DNA of 31,450 nt from an uncultured Holophagaceae bacterium (lineage in GTDB: Bacteria > Acidobacteriota > Holophagae > Holophagales > Holophagaceae), in NCBI GenBank assembly GCA_963923615.1, contig CAWULW010000001.1, forward strand, positions 1 to 31,450, in the 5' to 3' direction. The notes under the pieces are model-generated. The model saw only the letters and a list, made by a program, of their open reading frames with translations. It made no database searches and had not been told where the DNA came from. Below are positions 935 through 25,421 of this stretch, piece after piece. The translations under genes and the position numbers were made by a program. Numbering within the stretch: position 1 is the first letter of the stretch; every line of letters begins with the position of its first letter.

Positions 935-1812
935 GATGCTCTCTTTGTTAAGTGGTGCGCCCAAGCTGTAAGGGCATGGGGGTTAGGAAGATCAGCGAGA
1001 TGCTCAAGAGCATCTTGAGTAACTTGACCCAAGGTGGCCTCTGCTTTCTCAAGACCCATAACCGATACGTAGGTTAGTTTACCCCTCTGGTGATCTTTCT
1101 GAGTGCCCTTCCCTAATTGATGCGCATTTGAAGTTGCATCTAAGAGATCATCTTTGATCTGGAATGCAAGCCCTAGGGCCTCCCCAAAACTACCAAGGGC
1201 GGAGACCTGGCGGGAAGATGCGTGACCGAATATGGCTCCTAGTTCGAGGGCAGCTCGCATTAATTTTCCAGTCTTCAATTGGTGAATTGTAGAGAGCAGA
1301 TGAGCATCAGATACTTGATGTTCCTGTTGCAGGTCAAGGCACTGGCCACCCACCATGCCTAGCCATCCAGCTCCCTGCGCCAAACAGGCCACAGCCGCTG
1401 AGTTTTGAGTTTCAGCGAGAACGGCAAATGCCTCAGTTAAGAGGGCATCACCAGCTAAAATGGCTGGACCCTCGCCAAACACTCTATGATTAGTGGGCTT
1501 CCCTCGTCGGAGATCATCATTATCCATAGCGGGAAGATCGTCATGAATTAAAGAGTAGGTATGTACATATTCCACGGCGATCGCACCTGGCAAAGCAGAT
1601 GCGGCTGCTTGGCCCAAGGCCTCGCATGCCAACATACACAAGATAGGACGAACTCGCTTTCCCCCTGCCTCCAAACTATATTTGATCGCACGCTGAAGTT
1701 CGCTCAACGGGATGCCAGAGGGGACCCGATGAAATCGAGTTACTAATTCTTTTTCAATAAGCGGTACGAGACGAGTTTGATCGTGTGCGACAGAAACTGC
1801 GGGGTCGATCAT
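931..1812 (-). CDS. ispA: polyprenyl (farnesyl/geranylgeranyl) diphosphate synthase
   Basis: GGKRVRP, first Asp-rich motif LIHDDLPAMDNDDLRRGKPT, GQCLD, KTG and second motif FQIKDD; xseB-ispA-dxs synteny. Confidence 0.95.
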   Translation of the reverse strand: MIDPAVSVAHDQTRLVPLIEKELVTRFHRVPSGIPLSELQRAIKYSLEAGGKRVRPILCMLACEALGQAAASALPGAIAVEYVHTYSLIHDDLPAMDNDDLRRGKPTNHRVFGEGPAILAGDALLTEAFAVLAETQNSAAVACLAQGAGWLGMVGGQCLDLQQEHQVSDAHLLSTIHQLKTGKLMRAALELGAIFGHASSRQVSALGSFGEALGLAFQIKDDLLDATSNAHQLGKGTQKDHQRGKLTYVSVMGLEKAEATLGQVTQDALEHLADLPNPHALTAWAHHLTKRAS

Positions 1813-2048
1813 GCGGAATCAGAATCGAGAGGTCTAGTTTCTAATTCACCGTTTAAAGATTGTTTTAAGACATCGACACGTCGCTTAGATTGCTCGAGTT
1901 GAATCTGAAGATCCTTGGCTAGCTTCACTCCTTTTTCGAATTCAACTAGGGATTGTTCTAGTGTTAGTCCATCCGATTCCAACTTTTGCACGACCGATTC
2001 AAGTTGCTCAAGACCCTCTTCAAAACTTTTAGGTTTACTTTCGGCCAT
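1809..2048 (-). CDS. xseB: exodeoxyribonuclease VII small subunit
   Basis: 79 aa with SFEEGLEQLESVVQKLESDGLTLEQSLVEFEKGVKL; GGAG SD upstream; ATGA overlap with ispA. Confidence 0.95.
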   Translation of the reverse strand: MAESKPKSFEEGLEQLESVVQKLESDGLTLEQSLVEFEKGVKLAKDLQIQLEQSKRRVDVLKQSLNGELETRPLDSDSA

Positions 2049-2203
2049 AGAATCTCCAAAGGGATTTTAAAGTTTATACAATTCTAACGCTAATAAACGT
2101 CAGAACGCTCAACGTGAAAAGACCTAGATTTATGGATCACCAGCAGGGCCAAGCAAAGATTCAAAAAGTCAAACCGCCTTTTTTTGGATACAATCATACT
2201 CTT

Positions 2204-2280
2204 TCCGGTGTAGCTCAGTTGGTTAGAGCGCATGACTGTTAATCATGATGTCGGGGGTTCAAATCCCTCCACCGGAGCCA
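2204..2280 (+). tRNA. tRNA-Asn (GTT)
   Basis: Acceptor stem TCCGGTG/CACCGGA, D-arm GCTC..GAGC, anticodon arm CATGA-CTGTTAA-TCATG, TTCAAAT T-loop, encoded CCA. Confidence 0.98.
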
Positions 2281-2289
2281 TATTATGAC

Positions 2290-2314
2290 AAGCCATCAGA
2301 AATGGTGGCTTTTC
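2290..2314 (+). terminator. intrinsic terminator after tRNA-Asn
   Basis: Stem AGCCATC/GGTGGCT followed by a T run. Confidence 0.65.
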
Positions 2315-2410
2315 GTCGCCAAAGGGTTGAGATAGACTAGCCGCACTGTGGAATTGCAGTCCTAAGACTTATCCAAATCAAACTCATTCACTCAAACAGA
2401 GGACTAAAAA

Positions 2411-2890
2411 ATGAAAAAAAATATCCTGTTCGTTTTAGTACTTTTTTCACTTATCGCATGTCAATCTGACCATGATCAGAAGGCGATATTGGGTAAAAAA
2501 AACGTGGCTTTTTATTCCCAAGTTTGGGACGTAGCCATCAATCAAGGACAAATTGATATTTTGGATACCGCCTATGTGGAGGATGCCATTCTCCACACGG
2601 TTCCTGAAATTAAAGGTAAGGCTCAGGCAAAAGCTTATTACGCTAACTTCGTGACGGGATTTTCTGAAAGGAGCTTCACGGTAAAGGACATGTTTGCCGA
2701 CGGGGATAAATTAGTAAAATATTGGCAATTTAAAGGAAGACATACTGGCACATTTTTTGGCATCCCCCCTACCGGAAAAAAGATTGATGTTATCGGATGC
2801 ACGATTGCCAAAATGAGAGACGGCAAAATAGCTGAAGAACAGGACTTTATGGATAACCTCGAATTCATGAAGCAACTTGGGGTTAAATAG
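2411..2890 (+). CDS. SnoaL-like ester cyclase family lipoprotein
   Basis: Signal peptide with lipobox LIAC; SnoaL/NTF2-like motif FKGRHTGTFFGIPPTGKK..GKIAEE; GAGGA SD. Confidence 0.85.
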   Translation: MKKNILFVLVLFSLIACQSDHDQKAILGKKNVAFYSQVWDVAINQGQIDILDTAYVEDAILHTVPEIKGKAQAKAYYANFVTGFSERSFTVKDMFADGDKLVKYWQFKGRHTGTFFGIPPTGKKIDVIGCTIAKMRDGKIAEEQDFMDNLEFMKQLGVK

Positions 2891-2971
2891 CCAAACTCAC
2901 CCCGAGATTATTCTAGGGCCATCACGCATTCTACAGAGTGTTCACCGGCAGGTGGGTTGGACAGTTCTCGC

Positions 2972-3538
2972 CTACTTGGCTCGCTCCATATAGGTCCGGT
3001 CAGCCGTATTGATTTTAATTTTTTCACCCGTCTGGATGTAGGGAGGTACTCCTACGGTAAGACCGTTCTTACATTTAGCCGGTTTGTAAGAGCCTGTTGC
3101 GTTTGCATTTTTCATGACGGGTTCAGTTTCTATAATTTCACTGATTAATGTAGAGGGTAAGTTAACCGATAGAGGGATACCTTCGTTAAACTCGAGTTCC
3201 ACAATCATATTTGACTCTAGGAGATTTAAGTCTTCTCCCATAATGTCTTTGTGAACTTCGATTTGCTCATACGTTTCATTGTTCATAAAAATGAGATTGT
3301 CACCATCAGCATACAGAAATTCCATTTTGTGTTGTTCTAGGTTGGCTCGTTCCACTTTATCTTGGGAACCAAATCGATTTTCACGATTGATACCATCCTT
3401 GAGTCTCTTCATCTTCACGACAACTCGAGCAGGTAGATTGCCTGGGGTTTGATGCTCAATGCTGATAACACGGCAAAGTTCCTTTTCAAAATTAATAATC
3501 ATTCCACTGCGGACTTGGGTCGACAGAATAAAAGGCAT
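2972..3538 (-). CDS. efp: translation elongation factor P
   Basis: 188 aa with KOW loop TPGNL, MEFLYADG, FMNNETYEQ, YKPA..NGLTVGVPPYIQTGEKIKINT; AGGAG SD. Confidence 0.95.
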   Translation of the reverse strand: MPFILSTQVRSGMIINFEKELCRVISIEHQTPGNLPARVVVKMKRLKDGINRENRFGSQDKVERANLEQHKMEFLYADGDNLIFMNNETYEQIEVHKDIMGEDLNLLESNMIVELEFNEGIPLSVNLPSTLISEIIETEPVMKNANATGSYKPAKCKNGLTVGVPPYIQTGEKIKINTADRTYMERAK

Positions 3539-3553
3539 CTTAACTCCTGAGGG

Positions 3554-3628
3554 TGGTGGGCATAACAGGGATCGAACCTGTGACTTCTACCGTGTGAAGG
3601 TAGCACTCTACCGCTGAGTTATATGCCC
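3554..3628 (-). tRNA. tRNA-Val (CAC)
   Basis: Reverse complement has acceptor GGGCATA/TATGCCC, anticodon arm CTACC-TTCACAC-GGTAG, GGTTCGATCC T-arm, encoded CCA. Confidence 0.98.
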
Positions 3629-3652
3629 AAAATAAGCGTTGGCAGAGCCCGT

Positions 3653-3661
3653 AGTTTAACA
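3653..3661 (-). promoter_or_regulatory. putative extended -10 promoter (TGnTAAACT) for tRNA-Val/efp
   Basis: Minus strand reads TG-T-TAAACT 24 nt upstream of the tRNA 5' end. Confidence 0.45.
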
Positions 3662-3714
3662 TCCCCGAAGTATCTTAGGGCGAAGGGTTCGTAGGAAGGA
3701 TGGGGTTGAATAGT

Positions 3715-4923
3715 TTAGAGATGGAGACGCAGGGCATCGACGAGGCGCTTAATTTCCTTCTCTTGTAGGGCACAGATTGCAACACGAAGCCCTTGCTCTA
3801 AGGGAATCAAATAAATATCATGTGTCTGAAGCGCTTGTACTACTTGATCCGGATGAGCATGAGGGAGGGTAACAAAAAAGCCCCCTTCAAAATACGAATG
3901 CTCGATATTGTTTTTACTCAGATACTGCGACAACTGATCCGCGCGATGCACTAAAACAGAAGACCAGTGTCGATGCTCCGATCGAAGTCTCTCCAATCGG
4001 ACTGAATCCCGGTAGAGTTTTTTAACGAGTGATTGAGGAGCCCGAGGAGCATTAGAAAATATTCCGCGACAACTGATGGCAAGTGCCGTTTTTAATTGTG
4101 GGTCTTGTCGCCACGGAAAGACGAGGGCGCCGCAGCGAGCTCCGTAAAGCGTTAGAGGTTTTGAAATAGACAAGGCGGCTCCTAGTAATGCCGGAGTTGA
4201 ACTTGCCCACTGAGCATAATGTTCCAAGATTTGCTTAACGGTCAAAGAGTCTCGAGCATATTCCAAGTAGGCTAGGTCTAAAATGACCGAAACCGGCCCT
4301 TGTTGAGATAAGCGATCGAAGATATTCAAGAGCGTCTGACGATGGGTAGTCGATAGATGTTGGCCGGTGGGATTATGGCAAGGATCGTTGAGCCAAAATA
4401 AAATCCGCCCCTGTTTTTTCATAGTACTTTCTAGTTTTGATTCAAGGGTAGCCATCGAACCGTGATCATCACTCATAGGATAGGCAACGGTTTCCACTCT
4501 GATTTGATTCTCAAACGCGAGTGTTTCGTATGGGGTCCAGCACGGATCGAACGTATGAACGGTTTGACCGGGCTCGAGTAAGTTTCGGAGGCTCACAACT
4601 AGCGCACCAGTGGCACCAGGCGTTGCACAACCCAAAACAGGTGAAGGCGCTTGAGGCCAGTAGTGGTGAGTAATAGCATCGATAAATTCTGGATCACCCA
4701 AGATGGGGGCATAGGGGTGAATCTCTTGAGATGTTAGGGAGTGCCATACCTCTGTTACTGTTTGAAGAGTGACGAGTTGACCCTCCTCATCGAGCAAAGC
4801 ACCGATGGAGAGGTTAATGACAGGATGGCCTTGAGCTTTACGCGACTGGGCTAATGCGTTGATCCTAAAGATAGGATCATCACCCTCGAGATTATGGCGG
4901 GAAGAAATTAGATGAGAATCCAT
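3715..4923 (-). CDS. class I/II PLP-dependent aminotransferase (aspartate aminotransferase-like)
   Basis: INLSIG, TPGATGAL, DPCHNPTG, ILDLAY and PLP-lysine motif SISKPLTLYGARCG. Confidence 0.85.
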   Translation of the reverse strand: MDSHLISSRHNLEGDDPIFRINALAQSRKAQGHPVINLSIGALLDEEGQLVTLQTVTEVWHSLTSQEIHPYAPILGDPEFIDAITHHYWPQAPSPVLGCATPGATGALVVSLRNLLEPGQTVHTFDPCWTPYETLAFENQIRVETVAYPMSDDHGSMATLESKLESTMKKQGRILFWLNDPCHNPTGQHLSTTHRQTLLNIFDRLSQQGPVSVILDLAYLEYARDSLTVKQILEHYAQWASSTPALLGAALSISKPLTLYGARCGALVFPWRQDPQLKTALAISCRGIFSNAPRAPQSLVKKLYRDSVRLERLRSEHRHWSSVLVHRADQLSQYLSKNNIEHSYFEGGFFVTLPHAHPDQVVQALQTHDIYLIPLEQGLRVAICALQEKEIKRLVDALRLHL

Positions 4924-4959
4924 TAAACTATCTTAAGTTCTAAGTGGGCTAGAGGCTTC

Positions 4960-5541
4960 ATGATTATTCCATTTCAAGGTATGGTTCCCAAGATCGGAAG
5001 CCGGGTCTTTGTGCCTGAGAACGCCACCATTCTTGGTGATGTGACCCTCGGAGAGGATGTCAGTATTTGGTTTAATTGTGTGCTGCGTGGGGATGTCAAT
5101 TGGATTCGTATTGGAAACCGAACCAATATTCAAGATATGTCGTGTATTCATGTCACGAATGGGAAATATCCAACTCTGATAGGATCAGGCTGTAGCATTG
5201 CTCACAATGTGATGTTACATGGGTGTACATTACACAACGGAGTCTTGGTAGGAATGAGTTCTACTCTGATGGATGGTGCGGTCATCGGAGAAGGATGTCT
5301 TGTGGCGGCAGGATCATTAGTTCGAGAGGGATTCCAGGCACCTCCGCACTCATTGATTGCGGGATGGCCTGCCGAGATCAAGGGAGTTTTATCTCCTGAA
5401 CAACGGGCTTTAGTTGCTTCCATTCCAGATCGATACGTTCGTTATAAGGAAGCCTACTTTAAGGATGGGTGGCCTATGGCCAAGGCGCCAGACTATCCCA
5501 ACCCCCAAGGGGGCTTTCAAGAGGGTCATCCCTACCCTTAA
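4960..5541 (+). CDS. gamma-class carbonic anhydrase family protein (YrdA/PaaY-like)
   Basis: Hexapeptide repeats; LRGD..TNIQD..CIH..IAHNVMLHG retains the Arg/Asp/Gln residues and three metal-binding His. Confidence 0.9.
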   Translation: MIIPFQGMVPKIGSRVFVPENATILGDVTLGEDVSIWFNCVLRGDVNWIRIGNRTNIQDMSCIHVTNGKYPTLIGSGCSIAHNVMLHGCTLHNGVLVGMSSTLMDGAVIGEGCLVAAGSLVREGFQAPPHSLIAGWPAEIKGVLSPEQRALVASIPDRYVRYKEAYFKDGWPMAKAPDYPNPQGGFQEGHPYP

Positions 5542-5678
5542 TCGGTTTGATTCATTTTGATGAGTCGTATTATGCTAAGAGACGGAATGGATAGAACTTT
5601 TTTAAGCTGCCCCCTACGCAATGACACAGATTAATAAACCTATAGGTGTGAGCGGGGCTCTTGGATAATGTTTCACCT

Positions 5679-6743
5679 ATGACGCACCATTTAATTATTC
5701 GAATTCATATTGATCCCACTCTAGGTTTAGGGCATCTGACTCGAGCTTTGGCCATTTATGAAGAGTGGAAATTATTGGGCGGAAAAACGACCTTGGTAGT
5801 TTCGGGTGATGAACGAGCACGAGAAGTTGGTCGAGGCAAGAATATTCTTTCCGGGGAACTTCCACCAGAGATCATTGATTTGGGTGAAAATAGCTTTGCT
5901 CCCTTAGGAAAGACTATGAAAGGTGAAGTAGTTCTATTTGATCAATGGACTTCCTCGAGAGAACAAATCAAAGAGGCGCATCCCCGTAAAATTGCATTAA
6001 TGGAAGACGATGGAGACGCCTACGAGGAAGCAGATCTTCTGTTCCAACCTTACTTAGAGGGCATTGTATGGCCGGATCATCCCACTCGAACTAAAAACGG
6101 TATCAAATTAAAACCTCATGAAGATATTAGGGGCAAATGCCATGTCCTTTGTGGAGCTACCTATATTGTTGCCAGTCCGATTGTCCGAACACTTCGCCCG
6201 AAGCGCCAGCCTGACCAACCTCTCAATGCCCAAAAAATATTAGTGACTTTTGGCGGAAGTGATGCAATGGGGTTAGCTCAAAAAGCTTTTGATATTCTCA
6301 AGAATCTACAACAAGAGGGTCGCTGGAGAGGAAGTAGCATGATTCTTGCGCCGCAAGGTATTCGAGGTGATTCTTTTCCTGGATGTACAGTTCATACCTC
6401 TATGACTCAACTGAGCGAGAAGATTCAACAATTTGATGTGATTTGGTGTGCAGGAGGCGTGACCCTCATTGACGCCCTTTGTCTTGGCATCCCAGTCGTT
6501 GCTTGGGGACAAAATGAAAGACAAGTTCAGGGATTAACCGAATTGGGTCACCACGGAAGTTGTTTTGGCCTTGGGGAGGGCCCCTCCGCAGATCCCCAAA
6601 CCGTCCAAGATGCCCTAGAACACTGGCTAGGACCTGAGGGGCAAGAAAGTCGACAGGAACAGGTAGCAGCCGGTATGGCCCTAATTGATGGGCTTGGAGC
6701 AACCAGAGTCGCCAAGGAATTATGGAAATTGGCTGAAAAATAA
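5679..6743 (+). CDS. PseG/SpsG-family GT-B fold nucleotide-sugar hydrolase/glycosyltransferase
   Basis: N-terminal IRIHIDPTLGLGHLTRALA, ILVTFGGSD, WCAGGVT..LGIP, NERQ. ATG 5679 preferred over TTG 5661. Confidence 0.75.
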   Translation: MTHHLIIRIHIDPTLGLGHLTRALAIYEEWKLLGGKTTLVVSGDERAREVGRGKNILSGELPPEIIDLGENSFAPLGKTMKGEVVLFDQWTSSREQIKEAHPRKIALMEDDGDAYEEADLLFQPYLEGIVWPDHPTRTKNGIKLKPHEDIRGKCHVLCGATYIVASPIVRTLRPKRQPDQPLNAQKILVTFGGSDAMGLAQKAFDILKNLQQEGRWRGSSMILAPQGIRGDSFPGCTVHTSMTQLSEKIQQFDVIWCAGGVTLIDALCLGIPVVAWGQNERQVQGLTELGHHGSCFGLGEGPSADPQTVQDALEHWLGPEGQESRQEQVAAGMALIDGLGATRVAKELWKLAEK

Positions 6744-20673: not shown

Positions 20674-21495
20674 ATGATGGATTTTAAAAAACCTTACACA
20701 GCGAACAGTTTTTTTCTCATCTCGGGCCCTTGTGTCATCGAGAGTCGAGAACATGCTTTAATGATGGCAACCGAATTAAAAAAAATTACCGAGATTCGCA
20801 ACATACCTTTTATTTTTAAAAGTAGTTTTGACAAAGCCAATCGAACCTCTATGAACAGTGCTCGAGGGCCGGGCATGAAAGAGGGGTTGAGTATCTTAAA
20901 GGAGATACGAGAGACCCTCAACATTCCAGTCTTAACCGATGTTCATGAATCTAATCAATGTACAGAAGTCGCTTCATATGTAGATGTGTTACAAATACCT
21001 GCTTTCCTATGTCGACAGACAGACCTCTTGGTTGCCGCAGGACAAACGGGAAAGGTTGTAAATATCAAGAAAGGTCAATTTTTGGCTCCCTGGGATCTAC
21101 AACATGCCGTCGACAAAGTTCGCTCCACCGGTGGATCTCCAATCTGGGTTACCGAACGTGGAACAACTTTTGGGTACGGAAACTTAGTAGTAGATTTCCA
21201 ATCCTTTCCGCATCTCAGATCAACGGGATGTCCTGTAGTCTTTGATGCAACCCACAGTGTTCAGAAACCTGGAGCCTTGGGTACTCGAACTGGAGGAGCT
21301 CGAGATATGATCCCTACCTTAGCTCGAGCTGCTGCAACCACCGTGGATGGTTTCTTTTTCGAGGTTCATCACGATCCTGACCATGCACATAGTGATGGTC
21401 CAAACGCAATGCATCTGGAACAATTTCCAAACCTTTTGGATGAATTATTATTAATTTGGAAAACGTCCCGTTCAAATCGTCAAATAACTACTTAA
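20674..21495 (+). CDS. kdsA: KDO8P synthase (metal-dependent type)
   Basis: GPCVIES, KSSFDKANRTS, QIPAFLCRQTDLL, NIKKGQF, TERG, DATHSVQ, SDGP. Confidence 0.97.
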   Translation: MMDFKKPYTANSFFLISGPCVIESREHALMMATELKKITEIRNIPFIFKSSFDKANRTSMNSARGPGMKEGLSILKEIRETLNIPVLTDVHESNQCTEVASYVDVLQIPAFLCRQTDLLVAAGQTGKVVNIKKGQFLAPWDLQHAVDKVRSTGGSPIWVTERGTTFGYGNLVVDFQSFPHLRSTGCPVVFDATHSVQKPGALGTRTGGARDMIPTLARAAATTVDGFFFEVHHDPDHAHSDGPNAMHLEQFPNLLDELLLIWKTSRSNRQITT

Positions 21496-22342
21496 GTCCT
21501 GCAGCATAAGTCAAATTGAGTAGCGCCATCATACGCGTCACTTTACCGATACTATTATGGCTAGTGTCGGTATGGGCAATTCCACGGGACTTGAGTTCCT
21601 CAAAGTTAAAATTTCCATGCCCGGATAAGTCAAAACAAAGAGCATGATCCTGAATCAAAGAGCTCTGAATGCAATAGCCGGGAGCGGGAACAGCCGATAC
21701 AATGACATCCGCCATAGTAATAAATTTTTCTAAGTGTTTCACCGAAGTGTTTTGATGACACAGAATGGGTGTTGCTTTTAGATTGGCCATCATGGCTGTG
21801 AGAGGTCTTCCAATACGAAGTGAATCGTTGATGACTAAAACCGTTTTTCCAGTGAGCCACTGTTCGCCAAATCCCCGTTTAATAGTTTTTACTACTGCAC
21901 GGGCAGTACAGGGAGTCATACACCGATGATCGGATCCATCCATGCGTTTTCGAAATTTATTCAGATACCCAATGTTGGTCGAATGTAGCCCCTCGATATC
22001 TTTTTCTGGATCTAAAAGATCCATAATTTCATCGTCTTTGAGCCCTGGATATTTGAGGGGATAAAAAACAAAGATGCCTTGGTATTTAGGATCCTGATTC
22101 AATCGAGAGACGGTTTTGACAAGTTCTAAACCTGTTTCCACTTCAATGTCCTGAACTCGGATTCCTAGATCTAGGCAGTCTTTCATTAAGAATCGGTGAT
22201 AGGTAATGCAACCTTCTTCGTTACAGCCTAGGATGACCGCAAGACCAGGCGACTGCCCCAACTGATCAATATTTTTTTGGATAACCCCACGATAGTGTTC
22301 TGAAGTTTCCTGACAGTTTAGTTTTAAGGCTAGATTAGACAA
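21488..22342 (-). CDS. methylenetetrahydrofolate dehydrogenase, Mtd1-type divergent FolD family
   Basis: KDIEGLH, PCTARAVVK, VINDSLRIGRPL, VSAVP, IGKVT; TTG start with AAGGAA SD. Confidence 0.85.
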   Translation of the reverse strand: MSNLALKLNCQETSEHYRGVIQKNIDQLGQSPGLAVILGCNEEGCITYHRFLMKDCLDLGIRVQDIEVETGLELVKTVSRLNQDPKYQGIFVFYPLKYPGLKDDEIMDLLDPEKDIEGLHSTNIGYLNKFRKRMDGSDHRCMTPCTARAVVKTIKRGFGEQWLTGKTVLVINDSLRIGRPLTAMMANLKATPILCHQNTSVKHLEKFITMADVIVSAVPAPGYCIQSSLIQDHALCFDLSGHGNFNFEELKSRGIAHTDTSHNSIGKVTRMMALLNLTYAAGLK

Positions 22343-22402
22343 TGATAATTCCTTACTTTATCTATTCTAATGGATTCTTTCTCAATAATCTAATCTAGAC
22401 TT

Positions 22403-23806
22403 ATGCCTCGAACTCCTGATGACTTAAAAGTTATCCAAAAAAAACTGAATCGTTTATACCCCTATGCAATTTGCATGCTAGATCATCGCAATGCATATGA
22501 GTTAATAGTAGCGACCATCCTGAGTGCTCAGTGTACAGATGCCCGGGTCAATCTAACGACTCCTGCGTTATTCAAGAAATATCCAACTCCAAAGGCTCTC
22601 GCTGCTGCTCATATCCAAGATGTTCAACGACTGATTAAGCCCACTGGTTTTTATAAAAATAAATCTCGATTTCTCATCGCTATGGCTCAGCAAGTGGTGC
22701 GCCATCACCAAGGGCAAATACCTCGGTTAGCTGAGGATTTAGTTCGACTACCTGGAGTGGGGAAAAAAACTGCCAACGTTGTACTCAGCAATGCCTTTGG
22801 TATACCTGCTATGGCAGTGGATACCCATGTAGGTAGATTAGCCCGCCGGCTGGGCTTAAGCTCCTCTAGACATCCGGATCGTGTGGAAAGAGATTTATGT
22901 AATTTATTCAAAAAAGAAACTTGGACTTTGCTACATCATCAACTCATTACTCACGGGCGGACAACCTGCAAGGCTCAAAGTCCTCGTTGCTACGATTGCT
23001 CATTGCAACCCATGTGCCCCACGGGACTTCGAGACAAAAAAGATCCCCATACGGGACATTGGGTGAAAACTGATGAAAGAATTGTTAGCTTGGTGCCTTC
23101 TATTACCGAACTGTTATGCCAATGGGGGCTTGCTTCATCCCTTGTGGGAAGAACTAAATACTGTATTCATCCACAAGAAACGTTAAAGAAAGTGCCCGAA
23201 ATTGGAGGGACGAAAAACCCAAGGATAGAGGATATTTTGAAAGTCAAGCCAACGTTAGTCATTCTTGAACGCATGGAAAACACACTCAAAATAGCGCAAG
23301 AATTAGATGCGGCGAGAATCCCAAGTCTCGTGCTGGATATAACAGATCTAAAAAGTTGGATCAAGGCATATCAAATTCTAGGTCGACGTCTTCACAGAGA
23401 TTCTAAATCTAAAAAGTCGATTGTGGAAGTGAGGAGATCGATTGGCCGACATCGAGCGAGAACACTCAAAGTTCTTATCTTGGTTTGGAAATCACCATGG
23501 ATCATTGCAGGCTCTCAATCATACTGTGGAGGATTGTTAACGGCACTTGGAGGTCGCGTCCTAGGCGATACTAATCAAACCAAGGCCTATCCTCGACGTA
23601 CCCCTCGAGATCTGATGAAGTTAAAACCTGATCTTGTGCTGCTTCCCACAGAACCCTATCCATTTAATGAAGCAGATCAAAAAGAATTAGAAAAGTTATT
23701 TCCCCGTAGCAGAATCGATATTATTTCAGGGGAACTTTTGACTTGGTACCTGAGTCGAACTTCATCAGCGCTTAGATACTTAAAACGGCGTTACTTTACT
23801 GACTGA
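22403..23806 (+). CDS. nth: endonuclease III fused to a BtuF-like helical-backbone metal-receptor domain
   Basis: aa 1-205: LIVATILSAQCTD, HhH LPGVGKKTA, VDTHV, C-x6-C-x2-C-x5-C. From about aa 226: RIVSLVPSITELL..VGRTKYCIHP..IGGTKNP..LLPTEPYPF..GELLTWY. Confidence 0.9.
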   Translation: MPRTPDDLKVIQKKLNRLYPYAICMLDHRNAYELIVATILSAQCTDARVNLTTPALFKKYPTPKALAAAHIQDVQRLIKPTGFYKNKSRFLIAMAQQVVRHHQGQIPRLAEDLVRLPGVGKKTANVVLSNAFGIPAMAVDTHVGRLARRLGLSSSRHPDRVERDLCNLFKKETWTLLHHQLITHGRTTCKAQSPRCYDCSLQPMCPTGLRDKKDPHTGHWVKTDERIVSLVPSITELLCQWGLASSLVGRTKYCIHPQETLKKVPEIGGTKNPRIEDILKVKPTLVILERMENTLKIAQELDAARIPSLVLDITDLKSWIKAYQILGRRLHRDSKSKKSIVEVRRSIGRHRARTLKVLILVWKSPWIIAGSQSYCGGLLTALGGRVLGDTNQTKAYPRRTPRDLMKLKPDLVLLPTEPYPFNEADQKELEKLFPRSRIDIISGELLTWYLSRTSSALRYLKRRYFTD

Positions 23807-25421
23807 ATGTTATGAATTTGAGCATCGCCCGCGGACTTTGATAGCCCAAGCTTCGCTTTATTTCTCGTCCTTCGGAATCCAAAATCAAAACTGTTGGATA
23901 GCCTATGACTTGATAGCGTTTAGCAAGATCCGGTCTAATTTTGTCCATGTCAATCCGAATAGCAACATAGTGACTACGTATATAAGCACGCACTGCTTCG
24001 TCAGGCCAAGTTTTTTCATCTAATTCAAAACAGGCTGCACACCAATCGGCATAGACATCGACTAGGATAGGTCGATTAAGTTTTTTGCCCTGTTCTATAG
24101 CCAATTCTAGGTCTTGGTTCATCCACTCTTGCTTGAAACTTTTATCTAAACCTAAGATCCGCGCGGTAGTCCCCTGAAAAACCGTAGTCTTAAAATGCAT
24201 TTCAGTCAGACGGAGGATAAAGTAAACAGTAAACAAGGTCGTCACCGCTAAAATGCTTCTATGAATTAGTTTTAAGCGCAACGAATCAATCTGAATGTGT
24301 AAATAGATCCAGACAGATAGTACTGCCAAACCTAAACACATCCATAACAACCAAGTAGTTGGGAGAATGGTACGAAGGGTCCATAGGGCAAAAGATAAAA
24401 CCATCAACCCCATAGTTTTTTTTATAAATTCCAGCCAAGCGCCACTTTTGGGAAGTTGCGCGCCTAAAATACCTACCATCATGAAGGGTACCCCCATACC
24501 AAGGGCAAAAATAAATAGTTCGAGGGCACCCAATACGAGGCCCTTGCCTTGCGAAATGGTGATTAAAATGGTTCCTAAAATAGGACCAATACAAGGAGCG
24601 GATAGAGGTCCAAGGATGACCCCTGTTAAAAAGGGTCCCCAAATCCCTGACTGACTCGACCAAGACTGCAGTCGGCTTTGCAGTGAACTCGATAAACTGA
24701 ACTCAAATGCACCTAGAAGCGACGCCCCAAAGATAAAAAATAATGTGCTCATGCCAATAATAAAACTGGCTGAACTTAAAATAGATCCAAATACATTTCC
24801 CGAAAGCGCAGCGATGACACCTAAGGTGGAATAAGTGATCGCCATACCTATGACGAGTGCTAGCGTTAAAACGGCCGCCTTCCTCTTGGAAATGTCCCGT
24901 ATCCCAATGACAGCCATTGTGATGGGAATCATCGGGTAAACGCAGGGGGTTAAAGAAGCTAAAAGACCGGCAAAGAAAATGCTGACTAAAGTCCACCAAG
25001 AAAATGGAGTCTCGAGTGAGGATAAAGATTCGACTGGGCGAACTTTAATTTTTTGCTGAGTAGGCGGGTAACAAATTCCTCCTGGTCCTTCCGTGCAAGG
25101 CTGATAAGTTACCGTCACTTCTAACTCAGGCTCTGAGGTGTTAAACAACATCGGCCATATTAATTCTTGTCGATAAATATCGTCTCCCAATTCATCTTGA
25201 CCTGAGGCTGGAGGCAGCTTGCCCATTCGGATTGCTTGGGGCGAAGAGGTGGACTCGACCTTTAAAAACGCAGTCTTAAGATGGGTCTTTGGTGGGATGA
25301 GTATTACCAAACGATCTTCTTTTTGCTGAATCTGTATTGATGTTTTTGGATGAAAGGCAGTCGGCGTCTGTCCCCACAAATTTGTGAACAGGAATACTAA
25401 GACTGCAAGAAAATTTTTCAT
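23796..25421 (-). CDS. dsbD: DsbD-family thiol:disulfide interchange protein
   Basis: Signal peptide, N-domain Cys pair (QPCTEGPGGICYPP), TM domain LTPCVYPMIP and APCIGP, C-terminal thioredoxin YADWCAAC. Confidence 0.88.
   Translation of the reverse strand: MKNFLAVLVFLFTNLWGQTPTAFHPKTSIQIQQKEDRLVILIPPKTHLKTAFLKVESTSSPQAIRMGKLPPASGQDELGDDIYRQELIWPMLFNTSEPELEVTVTYQPCTEGPGGICYPPTQQKIKVRPVESLSSLETPFSWWTLVSIFFAGLLASLTPCVYPMIPITMAVIGIRDISKRKAAVLTLALVIGMAITYSTLGVIAALSGNVFGSILSSASFIIGMSTLFFIFGASLLGAFEFSLSSSLQSRLQSWSSQSGIWGPFLTGVILGPLSAPCIGPILGTILITISQGKGLVLGALELFIFALGMGVPFMMVGILGAQLPKSGAWLEFIKKTMGLMVLSFALWTLRTILPTTWLLWMCLGLAVLSVWIYLHIQIDSLRLKLIHRSILAVTTLFTVYFILRLTEMHFKTTVFQGTTARILGLDKSFKQEWMNQDLELAIEQGKKLNRPILVDVYADWCAACFELDEKTWPDEAVRAYIRSHYVAIRIDMDKIRPDLAKRYQVIGYPTVLILDSEGREIKRSLGYQSPRAMLKFITFSQ

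Follow-up and report, generated by a model that had tools for sequence, protein, structure and literature searches.

Why would a DNA-repair glycosylase carry, at its C-terminus, a domain with the fold of a vitamin B12 carrier? The question is raised by one gene of an uncultured Holophagaceae bacterium (contig CAWULW010000001.1, assembly GCA_963923615.1), found in a stretch of 31,450 nucleotides that was analyzed here as a whole and is called the window. In a single reading frame the gene encodes an endonuclease III (Nth) followed by a class III substrate-binding domain resembling BtuF, hereafter the C-domain. We are highly confident of the architecture of this fusion, of its conservation, and of the membership of the C-domain in a cytoplasmic protein family. 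The best explanation overall, which we regard as evenly poised between right and wrong, is an Nth tethered to a cytoplasmic corrinoid-binding module.

A complete endonuclease III continues into a BtuF-like domain

The frame is open from an ATG start and comprises 467 codons plus a stop. A preliminary description, made from the letters of the window, had seen in these 467 residues a complete Nth, a linker of about 20 residues and a full class III domain, and profile searches recover the same parts. Residues 9-196 score 254.6 bits against the NCBIfam model TIGR01083 (nth; cut-off 211.7), and this half also matches Pfam HhH-GPD (PF00730, 3e-25) and HHH. Together with the lysine of the helix-hairpin-helix (HhH) motif, the catalytic aspartate and a C-x6-C-x2-C-x5-C loop for a [4Fe-4S] cluster, the score makes the N-terminal 210 residues a full member of the E. 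coli type of endonuclease III, with the HhH-GPD fold. Whereas canonical Nth has about 210 residues and ends at the cluster, this protein goes on with a PTG..DPH.G tail and a 240-residue binding-protein domain. Judged by its sequence, the N-terminal half should be an active endonuclease III, working as usual as a glycosylase and apurinic/apyrimidinic lyase on oxidized pyrimidines. The fusion also looks like the only Nth of the cell, because the sole other HhH-GPD match in the genome, in a 388-residue frame, is 27% identical and is probably MutY.

The C-terminal half belongs to the class III binding proteins by both profile and fold. Residues 226-449 reach 129 bits against NF038402 ('TroA_like helical backbone metal receptor'; cut-off 30), aligning to profile positions 1-217 of 219, and the C-domain scores 56.5 bits against Pfam Peripla_BP_2 (PF01497; cut-off 27.5). 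Structure prediction with AlphaFold2 (AF2), a check that the preliminary description had proposed, returned a two-lobe class III fold with its backbone helix for the C-domain (predicted local distance difference test (pLDDT) 93.8; predicted template-modeling score (pTM) 0.89), with a pTM of 0.68 for the full-length protein. Foldseek matched the C-domain model to E. coli BtuF (PDB 1N2Z, 1N4A, 5YSC), ShuT, RhuT and HmuT at TM-scores of about 0.8. Unlike BtuF, the C-domain has no signal peptide and no adjacent permease and is fused to a cytoplasmic iron-sulfur (Fe-S) enzyme. The Nth fold starts at the N-terminus of the fusion protein, which has no N-terminal hydrophobic segment; the binding domain is internal and lacks the export signal of class III binding proteins; and no FecCD-type permease lies within the window. 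The absence of a signal peptide and of a permease agrees with the preliminary description.

The fusion is genuine, under selection and apparently ancestral

Contigs from four independent freshwater-metagenome studies cover positions 22300-23900 and differ from the window by substitutions only, with no indels; this range includes the junction, where a check of read support had been proposed. Within the reading frame 22 variants were found, 16 synonymous and 6 non-synonymous (12 versus 4 in the C-domain). The same frame of 466-467 residues is present in all four genomes of the genus at 71-79% identity. Where synonymous divergence (dS) was not saturated, the ratio of non-synonymous to synonymous substitution rates (dN/dS) within the genus was 0.07-0.08 for the Nth half and 0.06-0.08 for the C-terminal half, and because these values are alike, both halves are under equally strong purifying selection. 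Independent contigs, a genus-wide frame and purifying selection together exclude an assembly artefact or a recent read-through. Separate translation of the C-domain from an in-frame GTG, which had been suggested, fared less well: the codon exists (Val221), but as a start it is not conserved within the genus.

Conservation of the HhH-GPD plus Peripla_BP_2 architecture, another proposed check, extends well beyond the genus, and relatives are mostly fused. A word-indexed search gave over 100 proteins that combine the two Pfam domains, at identities of 44-49%; those with a named source come from Geothrix, Holophaga or Holophagaceae, and all are annotated 'endonuclease III'. A protein among these (P0030, 'Holophagaceae bacterium') has exactly the sequence of one from genome G018, which ties our genome family f1 to Holophagaceae. 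In a sample of 251 genomes of the phylum (one of them, G063, unpublished; no claim depends on it), 27 of 162 genera have a C-domain match. Such a match occurs in 15 of the 16 other f1 genomes, 14 times within an open frame of 485 residues or more and once in a frame cut by a contig end. Matches outside f1 are all 28-39% identical, and those examined are stand-alone signal-less genes.

The carriers of the fusion comprise all four genomes of the roughly 1.2 Mb genus and most Holophagaceae of 3-4 Mb (Geothrix, Holophaga), with genome sizes up to 4.5 Mb. Seven f1 genomes carry Nth alone; the five unfused C-termini that were read end a few residues past a conserved CPTG.G...DPH motif, and no C-domain remnants were found downstream of unfused nth in six loci checked. 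In a tree of the Nth domain, rooted with sister-family sequences and supported by a quick search with the Shimodaira-Hasegawa-like approximate likelihood ratio test (SH-aLRT) only, the unfused proteins are nested in a 97% SH-aLRT clade that also holds fused proteins, and one of them forms a pair with a fused protein from its own genus. Fused proteins occupy all the deep branches, this genus included. Because the unfused proteins nest among fused ones and the deep branches are all fused, the fusion appears to be ancestral to Holophagaceae and the unfused state a secondary loss. We propose that the fusion would have had a single origin, no later than the base of Holophagaceae, and would then have been kept by purifying selection, also through genome streamlining, with clean loss in a few lineages. 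Streamlining did not create the fusion and only shortened its linker, from a median of 42 residues (range 20-71) in other Holophagaceae to 20 here, counted from the last cluster cysteine to the first strand of the C-domain.

The tail ahead of the linker (CPTG.G...DPH.G) is common to Holophagaceae Nth proteins, fused or not, and absent from those of the sister family. The host itself (G000, with G001-G003 in genus g1) is a streamlined freshwater member of Holophagaceae with a genome of 0.9-1.2 Mb, compared with 2.1-6.3 Mb elsewhere in the family; one g1 genome is a single contig of 1.2 Mb and 96% complete. The fusion gene is present in freshwater, lake or aquatic metagenome runs (one of them marine) from 9 studies.

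The C-domain belongs to a widespread family of signal-less proteins

An exhaustive phmmer search with residues 215-467 matched 9060 representatives at E <=1e-3 and 171 at E <=1e-30, with E-values reaching 1e-52. Nearly all of the best 150 relatives are 240-280 residues long, with a match that starts at residue 2-25, and their N-termini follow the pattern M...D.LGR.V.L...P.RIVSLVPS.TE, which is how a mature class III binding protein begins. Because these stand-alone proteins start at the first beta-strand, they have no room for a signal peptide. On this evidence the family is predicted to be a large, uncharacterized group of cytoplasmic, signal-less, BtuF-like proteins. A search with a 42-sequence alignment found at least 595 family loci in GTDB species representatives, the best 80 mostly in Bacteroidota, Balneolales and Rhodothermales; members were also seen in Acidobacteriota and Thermoplasmatota, the latter as clusters in the ESM Atlas. 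Names in these resources are generic, only 'ABC substrate-binding' in the ESM Atlas and likewise unspecific in the AlphaFold Database clusters. One member, from Sulfoacidibacillus ferrooxidans (P0260/P0274, L019 6001-7110), has 369 residues, including a C-terminal extension of about 110 residues without a Pfam match, and its gene adjoins CCG/Fer4 and flavin-reductase genes.

The family has a signature of its own. Invariant are P232-S233, C254 (in [FY]-C-x-[HE]-P), E292, W362, P365 and P418, and nearly invariant are GGTK, E-N, W..PW, EP[YF]PF and SWY.SR; all signature residues are retained in 121 fusions. Where the C-domain has YCIHP, GGTK, EN and W..PW, BtuF has YSDYP, TWQG, GGN and PPF. Alignment to the YSDYP of BtuF places the YCIHP loop in the N-lobe, where it would face the cleft, and we infer that the signature motifs as a group line the cleft between the lobes. 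Lys271 of GGTK corresponds in alignments to the loop from which the heme binders IsdE and HmuT supply their axial ligand; we take that ligand to be a methionine in IsdE and a tyrosine in HmuT and RhuT.

Cobalamin context of relatives and host

G240 and G100, from two Acidobacteriota genera that share a family, each have an operon that opens with a cobalamin riboswitch (RF00174, 104 and 108 bits; gathering score 31.5) and closes with a gene for a signal-less BtuF-like protein. Both operons have the order riboswitch, exported Peripla_BP_2 protein, FecCD permease, ABC ATPase, TonB-dependent receptor and signal-less protein. The first protein has a hydrophobic, lipobox-like N-terminus. The last, of 268-270 residues, matches the C-domain at an E-value of about 1e-35 and carries the full signature; its gene follows the preceding one after 34 nt in one genome and after 4 nt in the other, too short a distance for a signal peptide to fit. 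With an exported Peripla_BP_2 protein first and a signal-less member last, these operons encode an exported BtuF together with its cytoplasmic look-alike. At a further locus (L106), a gene for a DUF5522-BtuF-like fusion (5001-6014) lies 16 nt from a divergent IcmF-type gene (1592-4984), whose 1130-residue product combines B12-binding, MeaB and MM_CoA_mutase domains. IcmF also occurs within 7 kb of the family gene in 4 of the 80 Bacteroidota loci.

The host genus appears to import B12 and to keep a cobalamin economy despite its 1.2 Mb genome, as its gene content suggests. It has a single cobalamin riboswitch, upstream of its own genes for a 303-residue Peripla_BP_2 protein and a FecCD permease. 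Each genome also encodes three or four proteins with a B12-binding domain, of which two occupy open frames of about 1150 residues. In G003 the Peripla_BP_2 and FecCD genes lie about 29 kb from the fusion, and the sole FecCD match of the window's genome is on another contig. Because the importer has its own binding protein encoded elsewhere, the fused domain would be not that protein but a second, intracellular paralog. A Holophagaceae genome with unfused Nth (G015, f1, 4.1 Mb) has nine cobalamin riboswitch matches, compared with one or two in the other Holophagaceae sampled.

Together these contexts suggest the following model. The protein would be a single cytoplasmic molecule in which Nth is tethered by a flexible linker of variable length to a ligand-binding domain, and the C-domain would hold a corrinoid (vitamin B12 or a precursor) in the cytoplasm, as acceptor or holder of the imported cofactor. 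The preliminary description had offered a metal, heme or cobalamin as ligand; of these, cobalamin is the one that gains support, since relatives close cobalamin-riboswitch btu operons and one stands beside IcmF. That the C-domain binds a corrinoid, as the B12 context of some relatives indicates, we consider roughly an even call. Coupling between the halves is probably loose, amounting to co-expression and to tethering of a binding module to a DNA-patrolling enzyme, with no shared active site; we would hold any particular reason for the fusion with far less confidence than corrinoid binding.

Several observations weigh against this model. Evidence for the B12 link comes from two related genera and a single IcmF neighbor, whereas most family members, like the fusion genes, have no such context. 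No riboswitch was found in 19 of 21 other Rfam-scanned loci (11 mixed loci and 8 of 10 Acidobacteriota loci) or at any of the 10 fusion loci scanned, and a regular expression for the B12 box was negative in 109 loci, including the 80 from Bacteroidota, while detecting both positive controls. Clustering of neighbors in those 80 loci returned housekeeping genes: an enzyme with PALP and CBS domains in 19, and AccD, aldolases, SmpB, MgtE and PyrF. Presence or absence of the C-domain in Holophagaceae follows no pattern with cobalamin riboswitch count, both groups carrying riboswitches. The stand-alone family is not linked to nth, which neighbors it in 1 of 80 loci, there as a MutY-like gene, so gene order gives no Rosetta-stone support. 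The BtuF equivalog model NF002894 scores the C-domain at 34.3 bits against a cut-off of 234; the domain is BtuF-like in fold and is not a BtuF equivalog. The loop position of BtuF Trp66 is occupied by GGTK. Finally, the preliminary description had suggested that the module could supply or sense a cofactor for the glycosylase; we know of no need of Nth for B12, a corrinoid or heme.

At loci with uninformative context, no ABC transporter is adjacent to the stand-alone family genes. The PALP plus CBS-domain enzyme of the Bacteroidota loci (L026-L105), of cystathionine-beta-synthase/cysteine-synthase type, lies directly upstream of the family gene in its 19 loci, mostly on the same strand.

Fusion partners and charge of the C-domain

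Nth is one of several partners. The same domain is also found behind DUF1289 (a four-cysteine module), DUF5522 (a CC..C..C module) and DUF2064/CofC-like domains, and in the protein studied here it directly follows the cluster loop of Nth, as it does other cysteine-rich modules. The C-domain would thus seem to be a cytoplasmic module with promiscuous partners, which often sits right behind a cysteine-rich element. Literature searches on DUF1289 and DUF2064 gave no functional data. At one locus (L107, 865-3849), a NUDIX gene, a DUF1289-BtuF-like fusion and a Pyr_redox_2 flavoprotein gene of disulfide-reductase type overlap by 11 and 4 nt, possibly a redox module around the cytoplasmic binding domain. 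The DUF5522 modules fused to the BtuF-like domain start with a motif (Y.DP.TG) similar to the Nth tail, too short to call homology.

Fused and stand-alone members differ in charge. The C-domain had been described as rich in lysine and arginine, and its isoelectric point (pI) of 9.9, compared with a median of 7.4 for the proteins of the window, agrees. Fused C-domains have a median pI of 9.0, against 5.9 for the stand-alone relatives, which are mostly acidic. This basic shift fits work close to DNA; it could also come from lineage composition.

Alternative readings

The ligand may be heme, siderophore-iron or a metal ion in place of a corrinoid, an alternative that we regard as rather unlikely. 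The top structural matches include the heme binders RhuT, HmuT and ShuT, which, like IsdE, have a tetrapyrrole-sized cleft; a single-sequence search of the PDB puts IsdE, 4m7o and RhuT above BtuF; and the cysteine, histidine, glutamate and lysine of the signature could ligate a metal. These binders are all exported, however, and the axial tyrosine of HmuT and RhuT, in the loop after strand 3, aligns with Gly269 of the C-domain, which lacks this residue of the HmuT/ShuT-type heme binders. When the family profile is used, 4m7o, an uncharacterized staphylococcal binding protein, ranks first and BtuF next (1e-25 to 1e-30), making BtuF the best named match, above every heme binder, and cobalamin is the only specific regulatory context that was found.

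Alternatively, the BtuF-like fold may have been re-used as a DNA- or lesion-contact module that wraps the substrate and binds no small ligand, as in MutY. The architecture is indeed that of MutY, in which an accessory domain of ligand-binding fold has likewise been recruited, behind a linker, to a catalytic HhH-GPD/Fe-S core; the C-domains of the fusions are basic, and this is not a general trait of the window proteome. In fold, the accessory domain has no relation to the C-terminal NUDIX-fold domain of MutY, and reading of DNA by a BtuF-like domain is only a candidate role. Against a contact module stand the linker, which varies in length over the range given above, and the several Holophagaceae that do without the domain. 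C254, K271, E292, W362 and W366 remain invariant, moreover, whether the domain is fused or stands alone, and retention of the signature argues for the original biochemical function of the family. We consider this alternative unlikely.

The two halves might instead form a redox pair, the [4Fe-4S] cluster of Nth giving electrons to, or sensing, a bound corrinoid or other metal cofactor. The B12 enzymes QueG and RdhA pair Fe-S clusters with B12, and the C-domain recurs behind the cysteine-rich DUF1289 and DUF5522, the former (YdhL) a predicted Fe-S protein whose fusion gene overlaps the flavoprotein gene of L107. The metal centers of DUF1289 and DUF5522 are only putative, however, and the DUF2064 fusions have no cysteine cluster. 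The linker, being long, variable and of low complexity, poorly suits a fixed electron-transfer geometry, and the full-length model, with its modest pTM, does not help. A redox pair is quite improbable in our judgment.

Lastly, an artefact or an accidental loss of a stop codon during streamlining, which the preliminary description had entertained and for which the reduced genome and short linker might speak, is refuted by four concordant assemblies, by the same fusion in Holophagaceae genomes of 3-4.5 Mb, by purifying selection on both halves and by the Nth tree, which puts the fused state as ancestral.

Coordinates and neighboring genes

The fusion gene is flanked by a divergent folD-like gene (21488-22342, minus strand), 60 bp away, and by a convergent dsbD-like gene (23796-25421, minus strand). 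The 3' ends of the fusion and dsbD-like genes overlap by 11 bp (23796-23806), which leaves no intergenic space for a terminator. Features are collected in Table 1.

Table 1. Features of the fusion gene (positions in the window) and riboswitch operons of relatives (our locus and contig identifiers)
Feature	Position	Strand	Basis or remark
Whole fusion gene	22403..23806	+	Monocistronic; reading-frame call, independent contigs without indels
Endonuclease III core, HhH-GPD fold, residues 9-196	22427..22990	+	TIGR01083 254.6 bits; PF00730 3e-25
Catalytic Lys122, HhH motif GVGKKTAN	22766..22768	+	Invariant in 121 homologs
Catalytic Asp140, VDTH	22820..22822	+	Invariant in 121 homologs
[4Fe-4S] cluster loop Cys189-x6-Cys196-x2-Cys199-x5-Cys205	22967..23017	+	All four Cys invariant in 121 homologs
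Tail and linker, residues 206-225, conserved PTG..DPH.G motif	23018..23077	+	20 residues here
In-frame GTG (Val221)	23063..23065	+	GTA in 2 of 4 genus members
Signal-less class III (BtuF/HmuT-like) binding-protein domain, residues 226-467	23078..23803	+	NF038402, PF01497, AF2, Foldseek
Signature loop Cys254-Ile-His256 (YCIHP)	23162..23170	+	Cys invariant in 150 family members and 121 fusions
Lys271 of GGTK	23213..23215	+	Invariant in fusions; at least 90% conserved in family
Glu292-Asn293 of (E/D)EN motif	23276..23281	+	E292 invariant in family
Trp362-x-x-Pro365-Trp366 (W..PW), C-lobe	23486..23500	+	W362 and P365 invariant in family
Riboswitch operons of relatives	L120/L127 (G240:C31), L121/L128 (G100:C107)		

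Discussion

The preliminary description knew of no characterized fusion of these two domains, and full-text literature searches likewise gave no described counterpart and nothing published about either the fusion or class III binding proteins in the cytoplasm. The fused proteins are already public, with the second domain hidden in the annotation by the label 'endonuclease III'. That the C-domain is kept in a streamlined genome of 1.2 Mb argues that its function is useful.

A bolder reading joins the two halves more closely: the family would be a bacterial intracellular B12 acceptor or chaperone fed by BtuCD, and in Holophagaceae it would be wired to the redox-active [4Fe-4S] cluster of Nth. 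We think this distinctly unlikely. If it were true, base-excision repair would be physically coupled to the redox state or availability of cobalamin, with the cluster reducing bound cobalamin or B12 occupancy tuning Nth on DNA.

To our knowledge, how bacteria route and hold B12 after its passage through the inner membrane is largely unknown, and we know of no established bacterial counterpart of the human trafficking proteins CblC and CblD. A widespread cytoplasmic copy of a B12 carrier fold, sometimes under the control of a B12 riboswitch, is a concrete candidate for such intracellular B12 handling. That it is stably fused to the only endonuclease III of an entire bacterial family provides a ready-made handle on the function of the C-domain, in that one recombinant protein could address corrinoid binding, redox cross-talk between Fe-S cluster and corrinoid, and effects on DNA repair.

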